From contig JBAWVI010000049.1 of the NCBI GenBank assembly GCA_037147375.1, forward strand, positions 1-7,126: a stretch of DNA of 7,126 nucleotides, in the 5' to 3' direction. Below the pieces are notes generated by a model that saw only the letters and a list, made by a program, of their open reading frames with translations, had not been told where the DNA came from and made no database searches. The position numbers were made by a program, and so were the translations under genes. Positions 1 to 7,126 of this stretch are shown here, piece after piece (within the stretch, counting starts at the first letter, position 1; each line of letters opens with the position of its first letter). The DNA is from an archaeon. GTDB taxonomy: Archaea; Iainarchaeota; Iainarchaeia; Iainarchaeales; CSSED10-239.

Positions 1-11
1 TATACATATAG

Positions 12-20
12 TATATAACT
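12..20 (+). promoter_or_regulatory. Candidate archaeal TATA-box-like element upstream of the large ORF
   Basis: tatataact lies at 12-20, roughly 35-40 nt upstream of the ATG at 53. It is bracketed by a 7-bp inverted repeat, ataacta (15-21) / tagttat (30-36). Such matches are frequent in this AT-rich background, so support is weak. Confidence 0.25.
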
Positions 21-31
21 ATAAGTTTGTA

Positions 32-59
32 GTTATTTATGAAAAGTTATTTATGAAAA
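32..59 (+). repeat. Perfect 14-nt tandem duplication (gttatttatgaaaa x2) spanning the start codon of the large ORF
   Basis: Positions 32-45 and 46-59 are identical by direct reading. Each copy contains an ATG (39-41 and 53-55). Confidence 0.9.
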
Positions 60-3000
60 AAGATAAGACATCAACTAATACAAGAGATGAAAAGAACAGT
101 GATACAGGTATCACTTTAAAGAAGATTGATTCAACTATAAGTGTATCTGATAATAATGATATTTCTGAAAAAGTAGATATTTCTCAAGAAATCACTTCAA
201 AGGTATCTTCTTCTATTGAGGTTACTGATGATGAAAGTAAGGAAAATATTTCAAAATATATACCCTTAAAAACAAGAACAATTAAGAAAAAAATAGTTGT
301 TTATGATTATGGCAAGCATAATCAAGATAATAAAAAAATAGAGCTCAATGATGTTAAGCTTCCTAAAATTAAACTTGTAAATGATGATGAAGAAAATTCG
401 AAGTCACTAAATCCAGATGGGTCTATTAAAAAGAAAGAAGATCCAACAGTTCAAATTAAAAGAATGGTTGTTGATGTTGAAGATAAGCCACATGTTCTTC
501 CTCCTAAAAATATTTCAAGTGAACCACCAAAGATCGAAGATGTAAAACCAATTATTTCTGTTACAGATATTTCAAAAGAAATATTTGATAATTTAGATAA
601 TCAGGTTCCTGTATCAGCTCCTTTTGTTGATACACCAGATTTACAACCAGCAGAACCAAAGATTGAAGATAATAAACCAATCATTCCAGTTACTGAAATT
701 TCAAAAGAAATATTTGATAATTTAGATAATCAGGTTCCTGTATCAGTTCCTTCTTTTGATACAAATGATTTAGATAAAACTGAAACAAAATTATTACAAG
801 AAGAACCTGAATTAATACCTACACAAGAACCAATGATTGTTCCTCAAGAATTTCCAGAAGTTGTTCCTCAAGAACTTCCTATGATTATTCCTCAGGAATT
901 GCCTGAAGTTATTCCTCAAGAATTACCAGCAATCATTCCTCAAGAACTTCTAACTGAGGTTTATGATTTTAAACCAGATGGAATACATGAACTTCCAGTA
1001 TCTATTCCACTTGATAAACTTCCTGAAACTTTAGAAAAACAATTCTTAGAAAAACAACAAAAAGAATTACAAGAAAGAATACAAAAAGAAATTGAAGATA
1101 CTTTAAAAGAAAGATATAATAAACTTGATTTAAAAAATGTAACTGTTGTTATTGAAGATAAAATAGTAAATGATAAAATAAATGAAACAATTCCTAAAAA
1201 ACCAGAAATTAAAATAATTATTGTTGAAGATATTAATAAATTATTATTAGAGCTTGATGAAAGAACAAAAACATTAATCTCTGATGACACTATGCTTGAA
1301 TTATATAGTTTTAGAGGTGAACTTCCAAAGGTAAGTAAAATATCCTATAAAACATATAATATTCAAAATTTATATTCAAAGATTGATGACCTTTCAAAAA
1401 TTGCAAAACAAAATTCAGCAAATGCTCAAATAAAGGTTAGTGATATTTCAGATACACAAATCCCACTTAGTTCAAAACAAAAATTTAAACAAGAACTTAA
1501 TGAAGATGCAATTATTGAAGAATTAATGATTCCAGAAATTATTCCAATTAAAGACAACATAACAGATATAGATAGTTTGGTTAATAATAAATTTAGCGAA
1601 TCAATTGAACTTAGAGACGAAAGTATGCAAATACCAACCTTTGTAGATTCAAAGTCTGGACCTGAATTAAATAAAAAGGTTCAGGATAATCTAAAAACAA
1701 TAAACGAAAATAAATTAAAAAAAGAACAAAGCAAACAAAATACTCAAAAACATAAATCCATTAATTCAATTGTGGATAGTAAGAAGGTTACTCCAACAAC
1801 ACAAAATCAAGAACATAAACAAAAGGAAATAGATCCAAGAATATCTCTTCTTGAAAAAGAATTAAAGGAAGAAAAAGAAAGATTTGATTCCTTTATTAGA
1901 CAAGAAAGAGATAAGCCAGTAAAAACTACAACTAATGAAATAGATCCAAAAACATATCTTCTTGAAAAAGAACTAAAGGAAGAGAAAGAAAGATTTAATA
2001 ATTATTTAAATCAAGAAATGAATAAGCCTATAGAAGCAAAAGAAATTAATCCTAGAGCACAAGTTCCAACAAATGAACCAACAGGAATAAATGCACCTAG
2101 AAAAGAGCAAAAACCAGAAAATGAAATTTATATAAATAAAGATCAAGTTCCAAAAAGTCAAGAAAAAGGAGTATCTTATATTCTTCCAAAGGATGCTAAA
2201 ATAAACTTTTCAAAAAATGCAGGGTATGTTGGACTTGAAGGCGTACAATCTACACCTCATACATTTAATTTTGAAAAAAATAAAATGCAATCTTTGGTTT
2301 ATTCAACACCAATGAATATTCTTGATTCAGATATAACAAAAGTATTTGAAAAGTATTCTCTTGATGATTTCACGTATGTTACAATTTCTTATATTAAGGG
2401 TAAAGGTTTATTCTATAACATGATTCAATTAGAATTAACTCCAGAGCAAAATAAAGTATTTTATGAAATTAAAAAAATATTTTTCAATTCAATAGATCAA
2501 AACTATTATACATTTAATGGAGATAAATACACTCTTGATCAATATACTCAAAAGATATTTGATATTTCTTTATCTAAACTATCTTATCAAGTTAATTCAC
2601 TTGATAAAAAATTATTTTATAAGTTCATACAAAGAGAATTTTCTGGACTTGGAATATTAACTGCACTATTATCTGATAAAAAGGTTCTTGAAGTTTCTTG
2701 TGCAGGAGAAAAAACAAGTGTTGTAGTGTACCATATGGAATACGGTACTCTTGAAACAAATATAAATTTTGATAATATAAATAAATTAAATCAATTTGTT
2801 CTTCTTTTAACTAAAAACATGGGGCTTTATGTAAACTCATCACACCCAATAATTGAAGGTTACCTTCCAAATGGATATAAGGTTGAGGGTTTATTTTCTG
2901 CAGGAGAACTAAGTAGCAAAGGTTCTTCATTTGTTATTAAGAAGTACTTAGATGCACCAATAACTCCAACCTCATTAATTAAAGCTGGAGTTGGAACTAT

Positions 3001-3682
3001 TGATGTGTTTGCTTATATTTGGAGTGCAATAAATGAAGATTATAAAATCATACTAACTGGTGATGATACTTCGTTTATATTCCTAAACTCAGTTGGTCTC
3101 TTATATCCTGATAAGAAAATAATTTCTGTTCAATCATATGATAGAATTAAGTTGCCACAAAAGCAATGGATAAAAAGAGTTGTTACTGGAAATGAAGAAG
3201 TGGATAAAAAAACAATAATACAACACACAGTGTCTGAAAGACCAGATTATATCTTTGTTGATGAATTTGGAAGTGATGTGTTTGATGTTCCATGGTATGC
3301 AATAAATTTATTTTATGTAACTTACAACCAAGTTCCACAATTAAGAGAAAACATAAGAACTATGGGTCAAAAAGCAATAATTATTGAATTACAAAAGCTT
3401 AAGATTGGATATAGTGAAAACACACAGATAATAAAAATTGAAGAAATTGTAGATAGAAACGATTTTATAACAATTGAGCTTTCAACTAAGGATAAAGCAT
3501 ACCATATGAATTTATTATCATCAACAATTGATATTGTTAATTTCAATAAGAGAAGGAAATACATGAGATGGTTAAGTGACACTAATATGGTTGACTATCG
3601 TGATTTTAATAATATAGTTAATGAGTTTTATGTTAACGAAGAAAAAGTTATAAAAAGATTAGGAATAGATATAACTGCATAA
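53..3682 (+). CDS. Giant FlaI/PilB/GspE-family (type II/IV secretion NTPase) homolog with degenerate nucleotide-binding motifs and a ~730-aa repeat-rich N-terminal extension; predicted pseudo-ATPase
   Basis: Uninterrupted 1209-codon ORF. From about aa 740 the sequence follows the FlaI-type layout: YSLDDFTYVTISYIKGKG...ELTPEQ (FlaI N-terminal domain pattern), FSGLGILTALLSDKKVLEVSCAG...VVVYH, IIEGYLPNGYKVEGLF, SSKGSSFVIKKY...ITPTSLI, FAYIWSAINEDYKIILTG. The expected GxxGxGK[ST] position reads GDDTSFIF. Confidence 0.85.
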   Translation: MKKDKTSTNTRDEKNSDTGITLKKIDSTISVSDNNDISEKVDISQEITSKVSSSIEVTDDESKENISKYIPLKTRTIKKKIVVYDYGKHNQDNKKIELNDVKLPKIKLVNDDEENSKSLNPDGSIKKKEDPTVQIKRMVVDVEDKPHVLPPKNISSEPPKIEDVKPIISVTDISKEIFDNLDNQVPVSAPFVDTPDLQPAEPKIEDNKPIIPVTEISKEIFDNLDNQVPVSVPSFDTNDLDKTETKLLQEEPELIPTQEPMIVPQEFPEVVPQELPMIIPQELPEVIPQELPAIIPQELLTEVYDFKPDGIHELPVSIPLDKLPETLEKQFLEKQQKELQERIQKEIEDTLKERYNKLDLKNVTVVIEDKIVNDKINETIPKKPEIKIIIVEDINKLLLELDERTKTLISDDTMLELYSFRGELPKVSKISYKTYNIQNLYSKIDDLSKIAKQNSANAQIKVSDISDTQIPLSSKQKFKQELNEDAIIEELMIPEIIPIKDNITDIDSLVNNKFSESIELRDESMQIPTFVDSKSGPELNKKVQDNLKTINENKLKKEQSKQNTQKHKSINSIVDSKKVTPTTQNQEHKQKEIDPRISLLEKELKEEKERFDSFIRQERDKPVKTTTNEIDPKTYLLEKELKEEKERFNNYLNQEMNKPIEAKEINPRAQVPTNEPTGINAPRKEQKPENEIYINKDQVPKSQEKGVSYILPKDAKINFSKNAGYVGLEGVQSTPHTFNFEKNKMQSLVYSTPMNILDSDITKVFEKYSLDDFTYVTISYIKGKGLFYNMIQLELTPEQNKVFYEIKKIFFNSIDQNYYTFNGDKYTLDQYTQKIFDISLSKLSYQVNSLDKKLFYKFIQREFSGLGILTALLSDKKVLEVSCAGEKTSVVVYHMEYGTLETNINFDNINKLNQFVLLLTKNMGLYVNSSHPIIEGYLPNGYKVEGLFSAGELSSKGSSFVIKKYLDAPITPTSLIKAGVGTIDVFAYIWSAINEDYKIILTGDDTSFIFLNSVGLLYPDKKIISVQSYDRIKLPQKQWIKRVVTGNEEVDKKTIIQHTVSERPDYIFVDEFGSDVFDVPWYAINLFYVTYNQVPQLRENIRTMGQKAIIIELQKLKIGYSENTQIIKIEEIVDRNDFITIELSTKDKAYHMNLLSSTIDIVNFNKRRKYMRWLSDTNMVDYRDFNNIVNEFYVNEEKVIKRLGIDITA
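521..781 (+). repeat. In-frame tandem duplication (~129-132 nt, two copies) encoding EP(P)KIED-KPII-VT-ISKEIFDNLDNQVPVS...
   Basis: Copy 1 starts at 521 and copy 2 at 653. A 49-nt core (atttcaaaagaaatatttgataatttagataatcaggttcctgtatcag) is perfectly identical at 569-617 and 698-746. Confidence 0.9.
800..961 (+). repeat. In-frame 24-nt (8-aa) tandem repeat, about 6-7 units, encoding PQE(L/F)P-x-(I/V)(I/V)
   Basis: Translation: EEPELIPTQEPMIVPQEFPEVVPQELPMIIPQELPEVIPQELPAIIPQELLTEV. The DNA unit attcctcaagaa... recurs with a 24-nt period. Confidence 0.9.
1826..2056 (+). repeat. In-frame ~111-nt (37-aa) tandem repeat, two full copies plus a partial third
   Basis: EIDPRISLLEKELKEEKERFDSFIRQERDKPVKTTTN starts at 1826 and EIDPKTYLLEKELKEEKERFNNYLNQEMNKPIEAK at 1937. 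A third initiation, EINPR, starts at 2042. Confidence 0.85.
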
Positions 3683-3706
3683 ATTAAATTATAAAGAGTA
3701 AAAAAT

Positions 3707-4552
3707 ATGTTTGGAAAAATATTTACGAAACTATCCACCTATTTTCTAGGGGAATTAGTTTCAAGATTTGAAAATAGATTTAAGAATTTCTCAAAGGTAT
3801 TAACTTATGCAAACATAAATGAAGACCCTACAACATATATATCAAATTCCTTATTTGCTTCTTTTCTTCTTTTCCTATTCTTAGAATTTGGAACTATTTT
3901 AATGATGATTAGACTAAATATTATGTTTGGTTTATTTTCATTTTTAATAACTATTTTATTATCTTTTACGTTTGCAGGATTGGTTTTCATACTCTTTTGT
4001 AAGTACCCTTACTACGTACTAGAATCGAAGAAGAAAGAAATTGATTATGAAATTGAAAACTCAATAAGGCACTTATCTGTTTTAGAAGATAAATCTTTAA
4101 CCATAAAGGATATATTAAATATTCTATTAAAACTTGAAAACAATAAACTATTATCTGAAGAAGCACAAAAGATATTAACTCTTTCAAGCATAAATTCAAA
4201 TATTAAAGATACTCTTCGTCAAGTTATTAAAGAAACATATTCTGAACTTGAAAAAAACTTCTTTAGAAGATTAATTGATGTTATTGATAATAAGGATCAA
4301 ATCGGTAAAGTAGTTAATGAATTTTTAGAAAGTCTTGAGCAATTAAGAAAAGAAACTAGTGAACAAAAGAAATCAAGCATAAATCTATTATTTGAAGTAA
4401 ATATATTTTTATTCTTTTTTGTAATTATTTTATTAACTAGTTTGTTTTTAGTTTCTCTTGATCAACAAACAATTAGAAGCTTATTAATGTTTATTGCAAT
4501 TGTGTTTCCTATAGTTGAATTTGTTTTAGTAGTTATATTATTTAAAGGTTAA
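3707..4552 (+). CDS. Polytopic membrane protein with one type II secretion system F (FlaJ/TadB/PilC-like) platform domain
   Basis: 281-aa ORF starting 24 nt after the ATPase-like gene. Layout: N-terminal cytoplasmic segment, a hydrophobic block (about aa 48-97), a ~125-aa charged helical region (EIDYEIENSIRHLSVLEDKSLTIKDILNILLKL...) and C-terminal TM helices. This TM / helical bundle / TM pattern and the position next to the ATPase are typical of T2SSF platform proteins. Confidence 0.7.
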   Translation: MFGKIFTKLSTYFLGELVSRFENRFKNFSKVLTYANINEDPTTYISNSLFASFLLFLFLEFGTILMMIRLNIMFGLFSFLITILLSFTFAGLVFILFCKYPYYVLESKKKEIDYEIENSIRHLSVLEDKSLTIKDILNILLKLENNKLLSEEAQKILTLSSINSNIKDTLRQVIKETYSELEKNFFRRLIDVIDNKDQIGKVVNEFLESLEQLRKETSEQKKSSINLLFEVNIFLFFFVIILLTSLFLVSLDQQTIRSLLMFIAIVFPIVEFVLVVILFKG

Positions 4553-4573
4553 TTTAGATAAAATGGATAATTT

Positions 4574-5722
4574 ATGACAGAGATGAAATTTAAGCCAAGT
4601 AAACTAGAAGATGAGTTTACGTTATTTTTCTATAGTCATGAATATGATGTGTTAGAAATTGCTGGTATTCTCTCTGGGTTATTAATTATATTTATTACAA
4701 ACAGATTCTTTTTTCTAAGCTCTATTTATTATTTATTATTAATATTTGGAATTGTTGTTTGTTCACTTGGGTTCTTGCTTGAATATGTAATTAAATTTGC
4801 TAAAAAGAAAGCAATTGAACTTGAATTTGGATACTTTCTTCAAGATCTTTCAAGAGAGTATAAAAACACAAAAAATTTATCTATTGCAATAACTAATATT
4901 TCTAATAATAATACCTATGGTTCTGTGGACTCAGAGATTAGACGTATAGCAACTAGACTATCTTGGGGTGATGATTTCTATAATGCTTTATTATCAGTAA
5001 ATAAGGAAATAAGAAGTCCAATAATTCATCATACTCTTGTATTACTTGATACATTTAAAACAAGTGAGGTTCCTTTAAATAGAATTCTATTAAACATTTC
5101 AAAAGATATTTCTATTTATAGAGAAGAAAACTTAAAAAAGAAATATTTTAAGAATCTTTATTACTTAGCAATTGTTTTCTTTTCAATCTTCTTATTTGTA
5201 TTAGTTTATTTTGATTTACTTATTGGTAGAAATTTCTTATGGTATTCTACTACTGATGTAGTAACTAGAATATTCATTGATAATTTCTTATTGTATATTG
5301 GTTTGTTATTATCTTTCTTTACTGCATTTGTAATGCATTCTATTAAAGGAGGTAAGAGTATAGACTTCTTAAAATATATTGGTGTGTTCTTTATAATCGT
5401 AATTGTTTTATTTCAAGTGTTTATTCCAAAACCAACTGCAGATGATGTTCTTATTGAAAGTATAAATCATATGAAAGAGAGTGGAGAAACAAATATAGTT
5501 TTAGAAAGGATAATTTCTCTTGAATCAATTAGTTCAAAGTATATTAGTGAGAATGTTAGAACTGATCAAATTTATTTCATTAATGGAAAGACAAGAAGTA
5601 CTTGTGATATTAAGTGTATAGAATACACTATCTTAGTTGATGATGCTACATTCTATAATTTTAATATAATTAGAGATGGAGATAAATTTATTATTTATTA
5701 TTATGTAGTTATTGAATTGTAA
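4574..5722 (+). CDS. Polytopic membrane protein with one type II secretion system F (FlaJ/TadC/PilC-like) platform domain plus a ~95-aa C-terminal non-membrane extension
   Basis: 382-aa ORF starting 21 nt after the previous gene. Two N-terminal TM helices are followed by a cytoplasmic segment (FGYFLQDLSREYKNTKNLSIAITNIS...GSVDSEIRRIATRLSWGDDFYNALLSV) that fits the T2SSF pattern (hP-x-hL-x-hL...G-x-s-h-x-x-A-h ... G-x-x-h-x-x-A-L). About three more TM helices follow, then a soluble Cys-containing tail. Confidence 0.75.
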   Translation: MTEMKFKPSKLEDEFTLFFYSHEYDVLEIAGILSGLLIIFITNRFFFLSSIYYLLLIFGIVVCSLGFLLEYVIKFAKKKAIELEFGYFLQDLSREYKNTKNLSIAITNISNNNTYGSVDSEIRRIATRLSWGDDFYNALLSVNKEIRSPIIHHTLVLLDTFKTSEVPLNRILLNISKDISIYREENLKKKYFKNLYYLAIVFFSIFLFVLVYFDLLIGRNFLWYSTTDVVTRIFIDNFLLYIGLLLSFFTAFVMHSIKGGKSIDFLKYIGVFFIIVIVLFQVFIPKPTADDVLIESINHMKESGETNIVLERIISLESISSKYISENVRTDQIYFINGKTRSTCDIKCIEYTILVDDATFYNFNIIRDGDKFIIYYYVVIEL

Positions 5723-5733
5723 TTTAATCATAC

Positions 5734-5747
5734 TATATATAATATAA
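5734..5747 (+). promoter_or_regulatory. Candidate TATA-like element in the 79-nt gap upstream of the DUF192-like gene
   Basis: tatatataatataa lies ~55-68 nt upstream of the TTG start. This is the largest intergenic gap so far in the cluster. Specificity is low in AT-rich DNA. Confidence 0.25.
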
Positions 5748-5788
5748 TGAATAATATGTTTTCTCACAAACAAAGTTAATGAAAAGTA

Positions 5789-5794
5789 AGGTGA
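5789..5794 (+). promoter_or_regulatory. Shine-Dalgarno-like ribosome binding site (aGGTGa) for the TTG-initiated DUF192-like gene
   Basis: GGTG at 5790-5793 sits 8 nt upstream of TTG 5802. The first in-frame ATG is the Met of the conserved GLM motif, about 28 codons downstream of the TTG. Starting there would delete the conserved N-terminal strand and the G and L of that motif. Confidence 0.55.
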
Positions 5795-5801
5795 ATTTAA
5801 T

Positions 5802-6152
5802 TTGTTATATAATGTTTCAAAGAAGAAAACAATTCTTAATAAAGTTAAGATTGCAGACACTGAATTTAAGCAAGCTCTTGGACTTATGTTTTCAAGAAGA
5901 AGTAAGTTTAATTATTGTTTAATATTTTCAAGACCAACTTCATCAATTATAGGTTCATCTATACATATGATGTTTGTGTTTTATCCAATCACAGTTATCT
6001 TTCTTGATGAAAATAAGAAAGTAGTTGATATTAAAAAGAAAGTAATTCCATTTTGGTTTTATGCTCCTAAGAAACCAGCAAAGTATATACTTGAAATGCC
6101 TACAAGTACAAACATAAATTCCGTAAATGTAAATGATAGATTTAAATGGTAA
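5802..6152 (+). CDS. DUF192 (COG1430-like) family small protein
   Basis: 116 aa. The pattern matches the DUF192 layout as I recall it: V-x-h-A-x-T-x-x-x-x-x-x-GLM near the N-terminus (VKIADTEFKQALGLMF), a central hMhxxxxPhxhhFhDxxxxVV block (HMMFVFYPITVIFLDENKKVVDI) and a C-terminal A-x-YhLEh block (AKYILEMP). Confidence 0.65.
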   Translation: MLYNVSKKKTILNKVKIADTEFKQALGLMFSRRSKFNYCLIFSRPTSSIIGSSIHMMFVFYPITVIFLDENKKVVDIKKKVIPFWFYAPKKPAKYILEMPTSTNINSVNVNDRFKW

Positions 6153-6161
6153 TTAGTCTAG

Positions 6162-6170
6162 TATATATTT
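6162..6170 (+). promoter_or_regulatory. Candidate TATA-like element upstream of the pilin-like gene
   Basis: tatatattt lies ~45-53 nt upstream of ATG 6215, within a 62-nt intergenic gap. Specificity is low. Confidence 0.25.
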
Positions 6171-6214
6171 GTATTTTTGTATTAAGAGATACAATTATAA
6201 AAGAGAAGTAATTA

Positions 6215-7126
6215 ATGACGCAAAATGAAATTAAAACTTTAGAAGATATAGATAAGAAATCTATTTCTTCAATTATAGTTGTAATCTTAATTGTATTAAT
6301 TGCAGTTATTTTAATAGGTATGATTCTTACTTGGTCTAAAGATACTGTAAAAACTAAATTAGATGATGCTACAGAGAATATGAAAGTGTTATCTGAACTA
6401 GAATGTAGTAATGCTAAGTATGAAGTTGAGTTTTGTAATATTAACACAGTAACTAAGAATATAGATTTTTTAATAACAAATAATTCAGGGGTTGACTTTT
6501 CTTATTTTACTTTATCTGTGTTTGGTAAGAATATTTCTGGAGATTCTATGGTAGTTACAGGTTTATTTAATACAAATATTAGTAGTGGTTCTTCTAAGTT
6601 ATTGTCTACAAATTCAGATTACTATAGTGTTGTTAAACAAGATTCAAATTTATCTTTATTAGATTTAGATCAAGAATATACTTTCAATTTAGTAAGTGCA
6701 ACTTGTCCAAATTCAGTTGTTGATTTATCTTGTACTTCTGCAGCAGAATATACTTCATCACCAATTTTTTCAATACCTGATGGTAATTATTATTTATCTC
6801 AAAACGTAATTATATCCACAGATTCTGATGCAGTTATTTATTATACACTTGATGGAACTAATCCAACTACAAGTAGTTTAGTTTATTCAAGTGCAATTAA
6901 CCTTCTTGAAGATACAACTACAACAATTAAAGCAATTGCAGTTAAGCCAGGATATTTAGAAAGTACAGTATCCACAGGAACATATATTATTACACATACA
7001 CTAACAACTCTAGGTGCATCTCCAGCTGCAGGTTCTTATTATTCTATTCAAAATGTGACTTTATCAGGAGAAGCTGGTTCAACCATTTATTACACAATAG
7101 ATGGATCAACACCAACTACAGGAAGT
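6215..7126 (+). CDS. Archaeal type IV pilin-like protein (class III signal peptide / Pilin_N-like N-terminus) fused to repeated Fn3_assoc / CHB_HEX_C-like surface domains; 3' end truncated by the window
   Basis: This ORF is absent from the supplied track because it has no stop codon in the window. An in-frame TAA at 6209-6211 precedes ATG 6215, and 304 codons then stay open to the last base. The N-terminus is MTQNEIKTLEDIDKKS-ISSIIVVILIVLIAVILIGMILTW: a charged leader ending KK-S, then a ~20-residue hydrophobic helix resembling the archaeal pilin N-terminal consensus ([21 protein letters not shown]). Downstream, YYTLDGTNPTTSS...IKAIAVKPGY..S and again YYTIDGSTPTTGS match the signature I recall for Fn3_assoc/CHB_HEX_C domains. 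Confidence 0.7.
   Translation, partial: MTQNEIKTLEDIDKKSISSIIVVILIVLIAVILIGMILTWSKDTVKTKLDDATENMKVLSELECSNAKYEVEFCNINTVTKNIDFLITNNSGVDFSYFTLSVFGKNISGDSMVVTGLFNTNISSGSSKLLSTNSDYYSVVKQDSNLSLLDLDQEYTFNLVSATCPNSVVDLSCTSAAEYTSSPIFSIPDGNYYLSQNVIISTDSDAVIYYTLDGTNPTTSSLVYSSAINLLEDTTTTIKAIAVKPGYLESTVSTGTYIITHTLTTLGASPAAGSYYSIQNVTLSGEAGSTIYYTIDGSTPTTGS
6741..7126 (+). other. At least two tandem Fn3_assoc / chitobiase-C-like domains within the pilin-like ORF
   Basis: Domain 1 spans about 6741-6990 (SSPIFSIPDGNYYLSQNVIISTDSDAVIYYTLDGTNPTTSSLVYSSAINLLEDTTTTIKAIAVKPGYLESTVSTGTYII). Domain 2 starts about 6991 (ASPAAGSYYSIQNVTLSGEAGSTIYYTIDGSTPTTGS...) and runs off the window. Confidence 0.6.

Follow-up and report, generated by a model that had tools for sequence, protein, structure and literature searches.

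The stretch of DNA analyzed here, referred to as the window, comprises 7,126 nt of a genome of the Iainarchaeota (assembly GCA_037147375.1, contig JBAWVI010000049.1, positions 1 to 7,126 of the forward strand). It is AT-rich (G+C 23-31%) and carries a single string of co-directional genes separated by gaps of 21-79 nt; the open reading frames (ORFs) on the minus strand are the usual noise of AT-rich DNA and gave no matches. The first ORF of the string, at 53..3682, encodes a protein of 1209 amino acids (aa) related to the ATPases of type IV filament machines. To our knowledge, every studied system of this kind (pili, archaella, type II secretion, Tad and Com) is driven by a hexameric ATPase of the PilB/GspE/FlaI family that is docked on the platform protein. 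The 1209-aa ORF lies in the corresponding motor position, as the original prediction had proposed: two genes for proteins with T2SSF domains follow it directly, and this synteny recurs in ~20 loci. Sequence comparison and a structural model support its reading as a conserved pseudo-ATPase, derived from FlaI/GspE-type motors of archaeal type IV filament machines and predicted neither to bind nor to hydrolyze ATP. The features of the window are as follows.

53..3682, plus strand: predicted pseudo-ATPase ORF, 1209 aa, with a long N-terminal extension and a FlaI/GspE-like two-domain module without catalytic motifs
53..2281, plus strand: N-terminal extension, aa 1-743
1295..1390, plus strand: family-conserved short motif in the extension, LELYSFRGELPKVSKI...IQNLYSKIDD
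1517..1558, plus strand: second family-conserved short motif in the extension, EELMIPEIIPIKDN, of which the distant family member P0041 also has a recognizable version
2282..2989, plus strand: N-terminal domains N1 and N2 of the ATPase-like module, aa 744-979
2918..2947, plus strand: arginine-finger remnant KGSSFVIKKY
2990..3679, plus strand: RecA-like C-terminal domain, aa 980-1209, fold kept
3059..3082, plus strand: Walker A remnant GDDTSFIF, aa 1003-1010
3119..3142, plus strand: Asp-box remnant IISVQSYD, aa 1023-1030
3245..3274, plus strand: Walker B remnant DYIFVDEFGS (DYIFVDE is aa 1065-1071, nt 3245-3265)
3302..3331, plus strand: His-box region (VTYNQ is aa 1089-1093, nt 3317-3331)
3542..3670, plus strand: C-terminal helical bundle typical of archaeal FlaI/PilB (Pfam PilB3_C, 26.9 bits, cut-off 27)
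3707..4552, plus strand: platform protein half a, 281 aa, one T2SSF domain (Pfam T2SSF E=9e-10), ArlJ/FlaJ-like model match
4574..5722, plus strand: platform protein half b, 382 aa, one T2SSF domain, weak match
5802..6152, plus strand: DUF192/COG1430 protein, 116 aa
6215..7126, plus strand: pilin-like surface protein, cut by the end of the window

The last ~465 aa of the 1209-aa protein make up a two-domain module of the FlaI/GspE type. When the protein was compared with the PDB by phmmer, GspE of Archaeoglobus fulgidus (2oap, E=3e-40) and FlaI of Sulfolobus (4ii7, E=2e-26) were retrieved, and the NCBIfam FlaI model NF058587 matched with E=1.4e-33. The score against this model was 116.5 bits, compared with 309-450 for live near relatives and an equivalog cut-off of 550. 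Neither the score nor the gene context is that of the archaellum motor FlaI/ArlI with its fla/arl genes: FlaH, FlaF and FlaG were not detected among the neighbors examined, and the platform is split over two genes. Alignment to the Pfam T2SSE profile (PF00437) had been proposed as a check on the loss of catalysis; this profile gave no match with the window ORF at E<=1, the PilB3_C bundle just under its cut-off being the sole domain seen, and the 17 close homologs have no precomputed Pfam domains. The alignments to FlaI and GspE likewise placed no intact catalytic site in the ORF.

An AlphaFold2 model of aa 700-1209, based on a 61-sequence alignment, was confident, with a predicted local distance difference test score of 86.5 and a predicted template modeling (TM) score of 0.83, and the two-domain fold, with an N-terminal PAS-like domain and a RecA-like C-terminal domain, is present in it. 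In a Foldseek comparison with the PDB, 2oap was the best match (TM score 0.73 over ~500 columns), followed by the FlaI structures 4ii7 and 4ihq (0.65-0.67) and then by CpaF, VirB11 and PilT. At the level of sequence and predicted fold, the homology of the module to FlaI/GspE ATPases is unambiguous. The superposition on FlaI-type crystal structures that had been suggested matched in fold but not at the P-loop: in the model, the strand KIILTG (aa 998-1003) runs into the helix of aa 1007-1015 through a turn of only three residues, where live enzymes have an eight-residue phosphate-binding loop.

We compared alignment columns between 24 members of the family to which the window protein belongs, hereafter the dead family, and 36 canonical, live relatives. 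The latter keep the Gly, Lys and Thr of Walker A, both Glu of the Asp box, the Gly-Glu and Arg-Gly of Walker B, the Gly-His and second His of the His box and the Arg of FTIRKF in 31-36 of 36 sequences. The motif coordinates and peptide strings of the original prediction were all correct, and its flanking strings are present in frame. It had described the P-loop position, GDDTSFIF, as about two residues short and lacking the Gly-Lys and Ser/Thr of the motif, and HMMER alignments to 2oap and 4ii7 agree: GDDTS--FI stands opposite GETASGKTT, and the two-residue deletion takes out the Gly-Lys. The same deletion is found in 24/24 members, the Thr/Ser position is hydrophobic, and an acidic residue occupies the former phosphate loop.

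The other motifs are changed as thoroughly. In the Asp box, where VQSYDR aligns with IEDTRE, the canonical Glu (36/36) is Gln in all 24 members and the Asp is replaced by Ser; the second Glu, also invariant among the 36, is Arg, Asn or Tyr in the dead family and thus lost throughout. In Walker B, DYIFVDEFGS stands opposite DYIIVGEVRG. The hydrophobic strand noted earlier is kept, but the canonical Gly (36/36) is Asp or Glu in 24/24 members and the following Arg-Gly (36/36) is gone from all of them. The catalytic Glu, retained in the window as E1071, is found in just 7/24 members, and ten have Asn. A five-residue deletion between I1084 and N1085 removes the TGH loop of the His box with the first His. 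In the column of the second His, which 35/36 canonical sequences keep, the window has T1090 and the dead family Asp, Thr or Asn. The absence of the Asp-box Glu and of His from the His box, predicted from one sequence, extends to 24/24 members. The arginine finger can be added to the list of altered motifs (FTIRKF to FVIKKY): the canonical form is [RK]GSxFTIRKF, with Arg in 36/36, and the window has Lys at this position (K963), as do 22/24 members.

The positions around the lost motifs carry new family-conserved residues, namely Q1027 (24/24), D1030 (23/24), D1070 (Asp or Glu in 24/24), F1072 (24/24) and the acidic residue of the loop. Going by these columns, the former active site is more than a degenerate remnant, as residues newly conserved in the family have appeared in it. 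This conservation, together with the Glu kept at the Walker B position of the window, could be taken to point to a cryptic NTPase. Such a protein would still bind or hydrolyze nucleotide, using residues that have migrated or depart from the canonical set, such as the Lys-Lys conserved in FVIKKY and the newly acquired acidic residues. Some pseudoenzymes classed as such by sequence do have relocated catalytic residues (PMC10211241). We nevertheless consider a cryptic NTPase very improbable: the phosphate-binding loop is deleted and its three-residue replacement carries an acidic side chain, the Walker B Glu is limited to a minority of members, and no member has either Asp-box Glu, the Arg-Gly or either His. 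Nor is there an alternative P-loop anywhere in the protein. As had been judged by eye, no GK[ST] occurs in the 1209 aa and no other frame hides a P-loop; a search for [AG]xxxxGK[ST] in the six frames of the window was negative.

We also considered that the motifs might be missing through an assembly or frameshift error, or that the gene is a decaying pseudogene. The ORF is intact over 1209 codons, and the other frames across 3000-3160 are stop-rich. As the same losses are shared by 24/24 aligned members from independent assemblies, neither chance nor assembly error explains them; the same state was found in 32 cluster representatives and 18 species genomes of GTDB. A local frameshift artefact had been called unlikely in the original prediction, and the identical condition of more than 30 independent assemblies bears this out. 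Substitution patterns argue in the same direction. By the Nei-Gojobori method, the ratio of nonsynonymous to synonymous substitution rates (dN/dS) against the closest relative (locus L009, 83% identity) was 0.09 for the module and 0.095 when only the RecA-like domain was used; the N-terminal extension had a value of 0.28, and two other pairs gave 0.04 and, for L025 versus L024, 0.11. Such strong purifying selection indicates a functional gene rather than a decaying pseudogene, and with values of 0.04-0.11 an artefact or a pseudogene is effectively refuted. The window ORF is a clear homolog of an active enzyme family, has lost the catalytic motifs and is maintained by selection, and its P-loop is collapsed in the model; on these grounds, the earlier assignment as a predicted pseudo-ATPase is upheld.

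A word-indexed search retrieved 17 homologs with 42-58% identity, the complete ones being 791-863 aa long and mostly unnamed or labeled 'hypothetical protein'; a few JGI entries name family members VirB11 or archaellum ATPase. In an exhaustive phmmer search of 1.84 billion cluster representatives, full-length members of the dead family scored at least 460 bits and fragments down to 120, and ordinary ATPases scored ~150. Walker A is absent from 32/32 dead-family representatives. Among the matches listed, 128/132 proteins of the next tier have the standard G....GK[ST], mostly as GGTA[ST]GKT, and the four exceptions are a fragment of the family (P0100), a protein with a putative intein in the motif (P0102), one with a Lys-to-Arg change (P0082) and P0041, a distant member of the dead family with 29% identity.

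In a neighbor-joining tree, the dead family including P0041 formed one clade, recovered in 100/100 bootstraps. Its long stem lies among FlaI/GspE-like ATPases, at a clear distance from the ferredoxin-fused ATPases described below. This tree is distance-based only, so that the position of the stem among the canonical clades is unreliable and the exact sister group is not given by it. From the single clade with its shared losses, we infer one old loss of catalysis followed by stabilization. The distribution of constraint within the module also differs from that of live relatives: N2 is the best-conserved region of the dead family, with a mean pairwise identity of 0.64 versus 0.44 in live relatives, whereas the RecA core is slightly less conserved (0.51 versus 0.55). 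By these values, the weight of constraint has shifted away from the catalytic core to the N-terminal domains.

When GTDB species genomes were scanned with the dead-family alignment, the 18 loci mentioned above were retrieved. All named hosts belong to the Iainarchaeota/Diapherotrites: Ca. Forterrea multitransposorum (complete genome, CP045477.1), Ca. Iainarchaeum, 'ainarchaeum' and metagenome-assembled genomes (MAGs) of Diapherotrites. The remaining GTDB loci are labeled just 'archaeon', and the dead family is confined to Iainarchaeota (Diapherotrites) and unclassified archaeal MAGs.

The N-terminal extension (aa 1-743) is rich in Lys, Glu, Ile, Asp and Pro and mostly predicted to be disordered, with coiled-coil helices. 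It contains three in-frame tandem repeats, at 526-763 (a 129-bp, 43-aa unit, 1.8 copies), at 840-950 (a 24-bp, 8-aa PQELPxxI unit, 4.6 copies) and at 1826-2028 (a 111-bp, 37-aa LLEKELKEEKERF unit, 1.8 copies). The length of the extension varies among homologs, with proteins of 791-1209 aa, and the repeats together with this wide variation suggest repeat expansion in a disordered arm. A second model that included aa 380-699 showed the extension mostly at low confidence, with a few helices, and with short structured elements at the family-conserved motifs.

The gene order around the dead ATPase is fixed in ~20 distinct loci: a PHP-like hydrolase, a prepilin peptidase, the dead ATPase, platform a, platform b, DUF192, variable pilin-like or adhesin genes, and then ribosomal protein L10e ... 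NDK. The window protein had no exact entry in the contig index, and this wider context was read from its homologs. In the relatives, the prepilin peptidase lies directly upstream of the dead ATPase. The locus of the distant member P0041 (L039) has the order peptidase, dead ATPase, T2SSF, T2SSF, and that of the nearest live relative P0034 (L040) has ATPase, T2SSF, T2SSF. The gene order shared with the live relative and the synteny with peptidase and platform genes place the dead protein in the motor slot of a common archaeal module. A DUF192 gene follows the module in every core-family locus that is long enough, and is absent from L039; we found no literature linking DUF192 to pili.

One lineage departs from this order. 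In the P0017 lineage (GCA_029563035.1; L001-L003 and L024; locus ~9900-12950), the dead ATPase and DUF192 are kept without adjacent platform genes. This arrangement would fit a protein that has been repurposed, for instance as a signaling hub or as a partner of DUF192, and is no longer tied to pilus assembly, its operon position being historical; the gene remains under selection in this lineage, as the L025-L024 pair indicates. Such a history is distinctly unlikely for the family, given that ~20 other loci and P0041 have the peptidase before and two platform genes directly after the dead ATPase, that the gaps between the pseudo-ATPase and the two platform genes are 21-24 nt in the window, and that in the P0017 lineage the platform genes could simply be located in another part of the genome.

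Downstream of the module are large and variable genes for pilin-like or adhesin proteins, including three paralogs in L009 (14143-20203) and a 1113-aa Laminin_G_3 protein in L004 (15538-18879), so that the region beside the conserved machine is a hypervariable cargo region. In the window, the truncated product of 6215..7126 has a charged N-terminus and a hydrophobic helix, which judged by eye resemble a class III signal peptide, followed by CHB_HEX_C_1/Fn3_assoc repeats. On the other side of the module, a gene of ~310 aa is conserved directly upstream of the peptidase (L009 6339-7277; ~20 loci). It was considered as a hidden ATPase and rejected, because it encodes a PHP/CehA-McbA-like metallohydrolase and has no match to P-loop proteins.

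A canonical ATPase elsewhere in the genome had been named as worth searching for, and one was found in four related assemblies. In L019 and L029, a live ATPase gene lies directly after DUF192; its product has an N-terminal 4Fe-4S ferredoxin domain (Fer4) and the motifs GNTGSGKTT, VEEVRE, IGEIRN and FHS, and scores 119.6 bits on Pfam T2SSE. It is followed in both loci by two platform-like genes of its own and a VTT/DedA gene. In the MAG GCA_028700115.1, the live module lies ~18 kb downstream of the dead gene on the same contig (JAQVTI010000004.1; 57.6 kb, 57,584 bp), and in the MAG GCA_964463155.1 (CAYXAY01), contig 4 carries the dead gene and contig 6 the live module. The Fer4-ATPase module is common in Iainarchaeota and related archaea. 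About 45 cluster representatives are at least 50% identical to the Fer4-ATPase query, and thousands of remoter ATPases also match. It usually sits beside a PRPP (phosphoribosyl pyrophosphate) synthase gene (L019 10080-14113; L029 7291-11484; L027 10001-15352; L030, L034, L035 and L038). With its fused Fe-S domain, the ATPase may be a pilus motor under redox control.

Some further relatives are unusual in their own right. The live relative P0102 has a ~520-aa insertion right after the Gly-Lys of Walker A, which is intein-like by its position and boundary residues. P0082 is a partly degenerate variant, in which the Walker A Lys is Arg (GDAGTGRT) and the Walker B Glu is Asp and in which the Asp box and His box are kept. 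P0033 (1154 aa) contains two Walker A motifs and may be a tandem ATPase fusion.

Considering the conserved module together with the live paralog, we favor, with a rough probability of 55%, the reading that the dead protein acts on the platform as a non-catalytic ring, stator, adaptor or scaffold. It would still form a ring docked on the cytoplasmic face of platform a/b, and this ring would serve as a stator, adaptor or scaffold when the adhesin-type pilins of the downstream genes are assembled or anchored. For any step that needs ATP, the live ferredoxin-fused ATPase would provide the power in trans, and the long disordered extension with its conserved short motifs may be a tether or interaction arm. 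The original prediction had suggested a scaffold, a regulator or a heterohexamer partner: the first two may hold, but a simple heterohexamer of recent duplicates is unlikely, since the live paralog falls into another ATPase clade and comes with a platform pair of its own.

Several points weigh against a platform-bound ring powered in trans. Hexamer formation and platform binding are assumed by homology with the live motors. The P0017 lineage is a poor fit to a platform-bound scaffold unless its platform genes have moved elsewhere. The live paralog was seen in four related assemblies. Moreover, a Fer4-ATPase of another clade with its own platform pair may run an independent machine and never touch the dead module.

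Another reading is a stand-alone lock or regulator, in which the dead ring fixes the state of the platform, either as a static, non-retractile anchor for large adhesins or as an assembly gate until release, and no ATPase ever engages the platform. A self-contained and conserved module (peptidase, dead ATPase and two platform halves, with DUF192 and pilin-like adhesins in the core family) would be in keeping with a lock, as would the separate platform pair owned by the live Fer4-ATPase and a former active site that gained new conserved residues instead of drifting. We still think a lock unlikely, as the extraction of pilins from the membrane requires hydrolysis of ATP in every type IV filament system studied (PMC4371748, PMC4187195) and a live paralog was present in the same genome in all four cases that could be examined.

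The preferred reading, a non-catalytic ring with power in trans, also has a more specific form. There, a permanently dead cognate ring would be the stator or docking adaptor, and power would come in trans from a separate Fe-S, possibly redox-sensing ATPase of another clade; in the extreme version, the adhesin filament would be assembled or anchored without a dedicated ATPase. We put this form forward tentatively, as a possibility that the odds do not favor. If true, a dead ring on the platform with power in trans or no dedicated ATPase would be the first natural dead/live division of labor among PilB/FlaI-family rings.

Known systems resemble the dead module in part. With archaeal FlaI/GspE ATPases (2oap; FlaI/ArlI of S. 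acidocaldarius, 4ii7/4ihq), the window ORF shares the N1-N2-RecA-like architecture, the C-terminal helical bundle and the place upstream of platform gene(s) and next to a prepilin peptidase; it differs from them in the lost motifs, the absence of a T2SSE match and the ~740-aa disordered N-terminal extension. The gene order of an ATPase and two half-size TadC-like platform proteins is that of the Methanococcus Epd module (system 1, EpdL/EpdJ/EpdK), of clade 2 and subsystem 4A/4B loci and of bacterial TadA/TadB/TadC. Those modules are described with functional ATPase motifs (10.64898/2026.04.22.720090; PMC4858521), in contrast to the dead one here; EpdL (MMP0040) was compared by description only.

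The concept of an NTPase homolog that works without hydrolysis as a stator, adaptor or regulator of a live motor is shared with the non-catalytic ring-NTPase partners FlaH/ArlH of the archaellum, delta-prime of the clamp loader, F1 alpha and the degenerate actin-like GspL/PilM. However, these are of different folds or families, none is a dead PilB/GspE/FlaI copy in the motor slot, and FlaH and F1 alpha, unlike the dead ORF, still bind nucleotide via an intact P-loop. Accessory paralogs of the PilU/PilT2 type in bacterial type IV pili likewise provide, within one organism, a second paralog of the ATPase family that depends on another motor (PilU is PilT-dependent; PMC6762196). In contrast to the dead ORF, none of the four catalytic motifs is missing from PilU and the PilT paralogs (e.g. 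PMC5065972).

A 2016 survey of type IV pili in archaea is silent on inactivated ATPases (PMC4858521), and a 2026 survey describes variable N- and C-terminal domains around core domains that keep functional ATPase motifs (preprint 10.64898/2026.04.22.720090). Iainarchaeota are discussed in neither. Pili do not come up in the paper on the Forterrea genome, and our literature search on dead or degenerate PilB/PilT/FlaI homologs and on pili of Forterrea or Diapherotrites found no relevant description. The dead family would thus be a branch of pseudoenzymes within the family of type IV filament motors, for which we found no published description. As its members lack Pfam assignments and some carry motor-like labels, automated finders that require an ATPase for a pilus system are expected to miss these loci or to miscall the gene as a motor.

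A catalytically dead homolog that is conserved under selection in the motor slot, next to two platform genes of its own, would be a natural separation-of-function variant, which isolates docking, gating and scaffolding from hydrolysis. The hosts are uncultured archaea with very small genomes (0.84 Mb, 839,632 bp, for the complete genome of Ca. Forterrea), and at such a size, 2.4-3.6 kb is a high price for one gene. In DPANN archaea, pili are thought to mediate attachment to the host, and the dead protein probably matters for the symbiotic lifestyle of these archaea.

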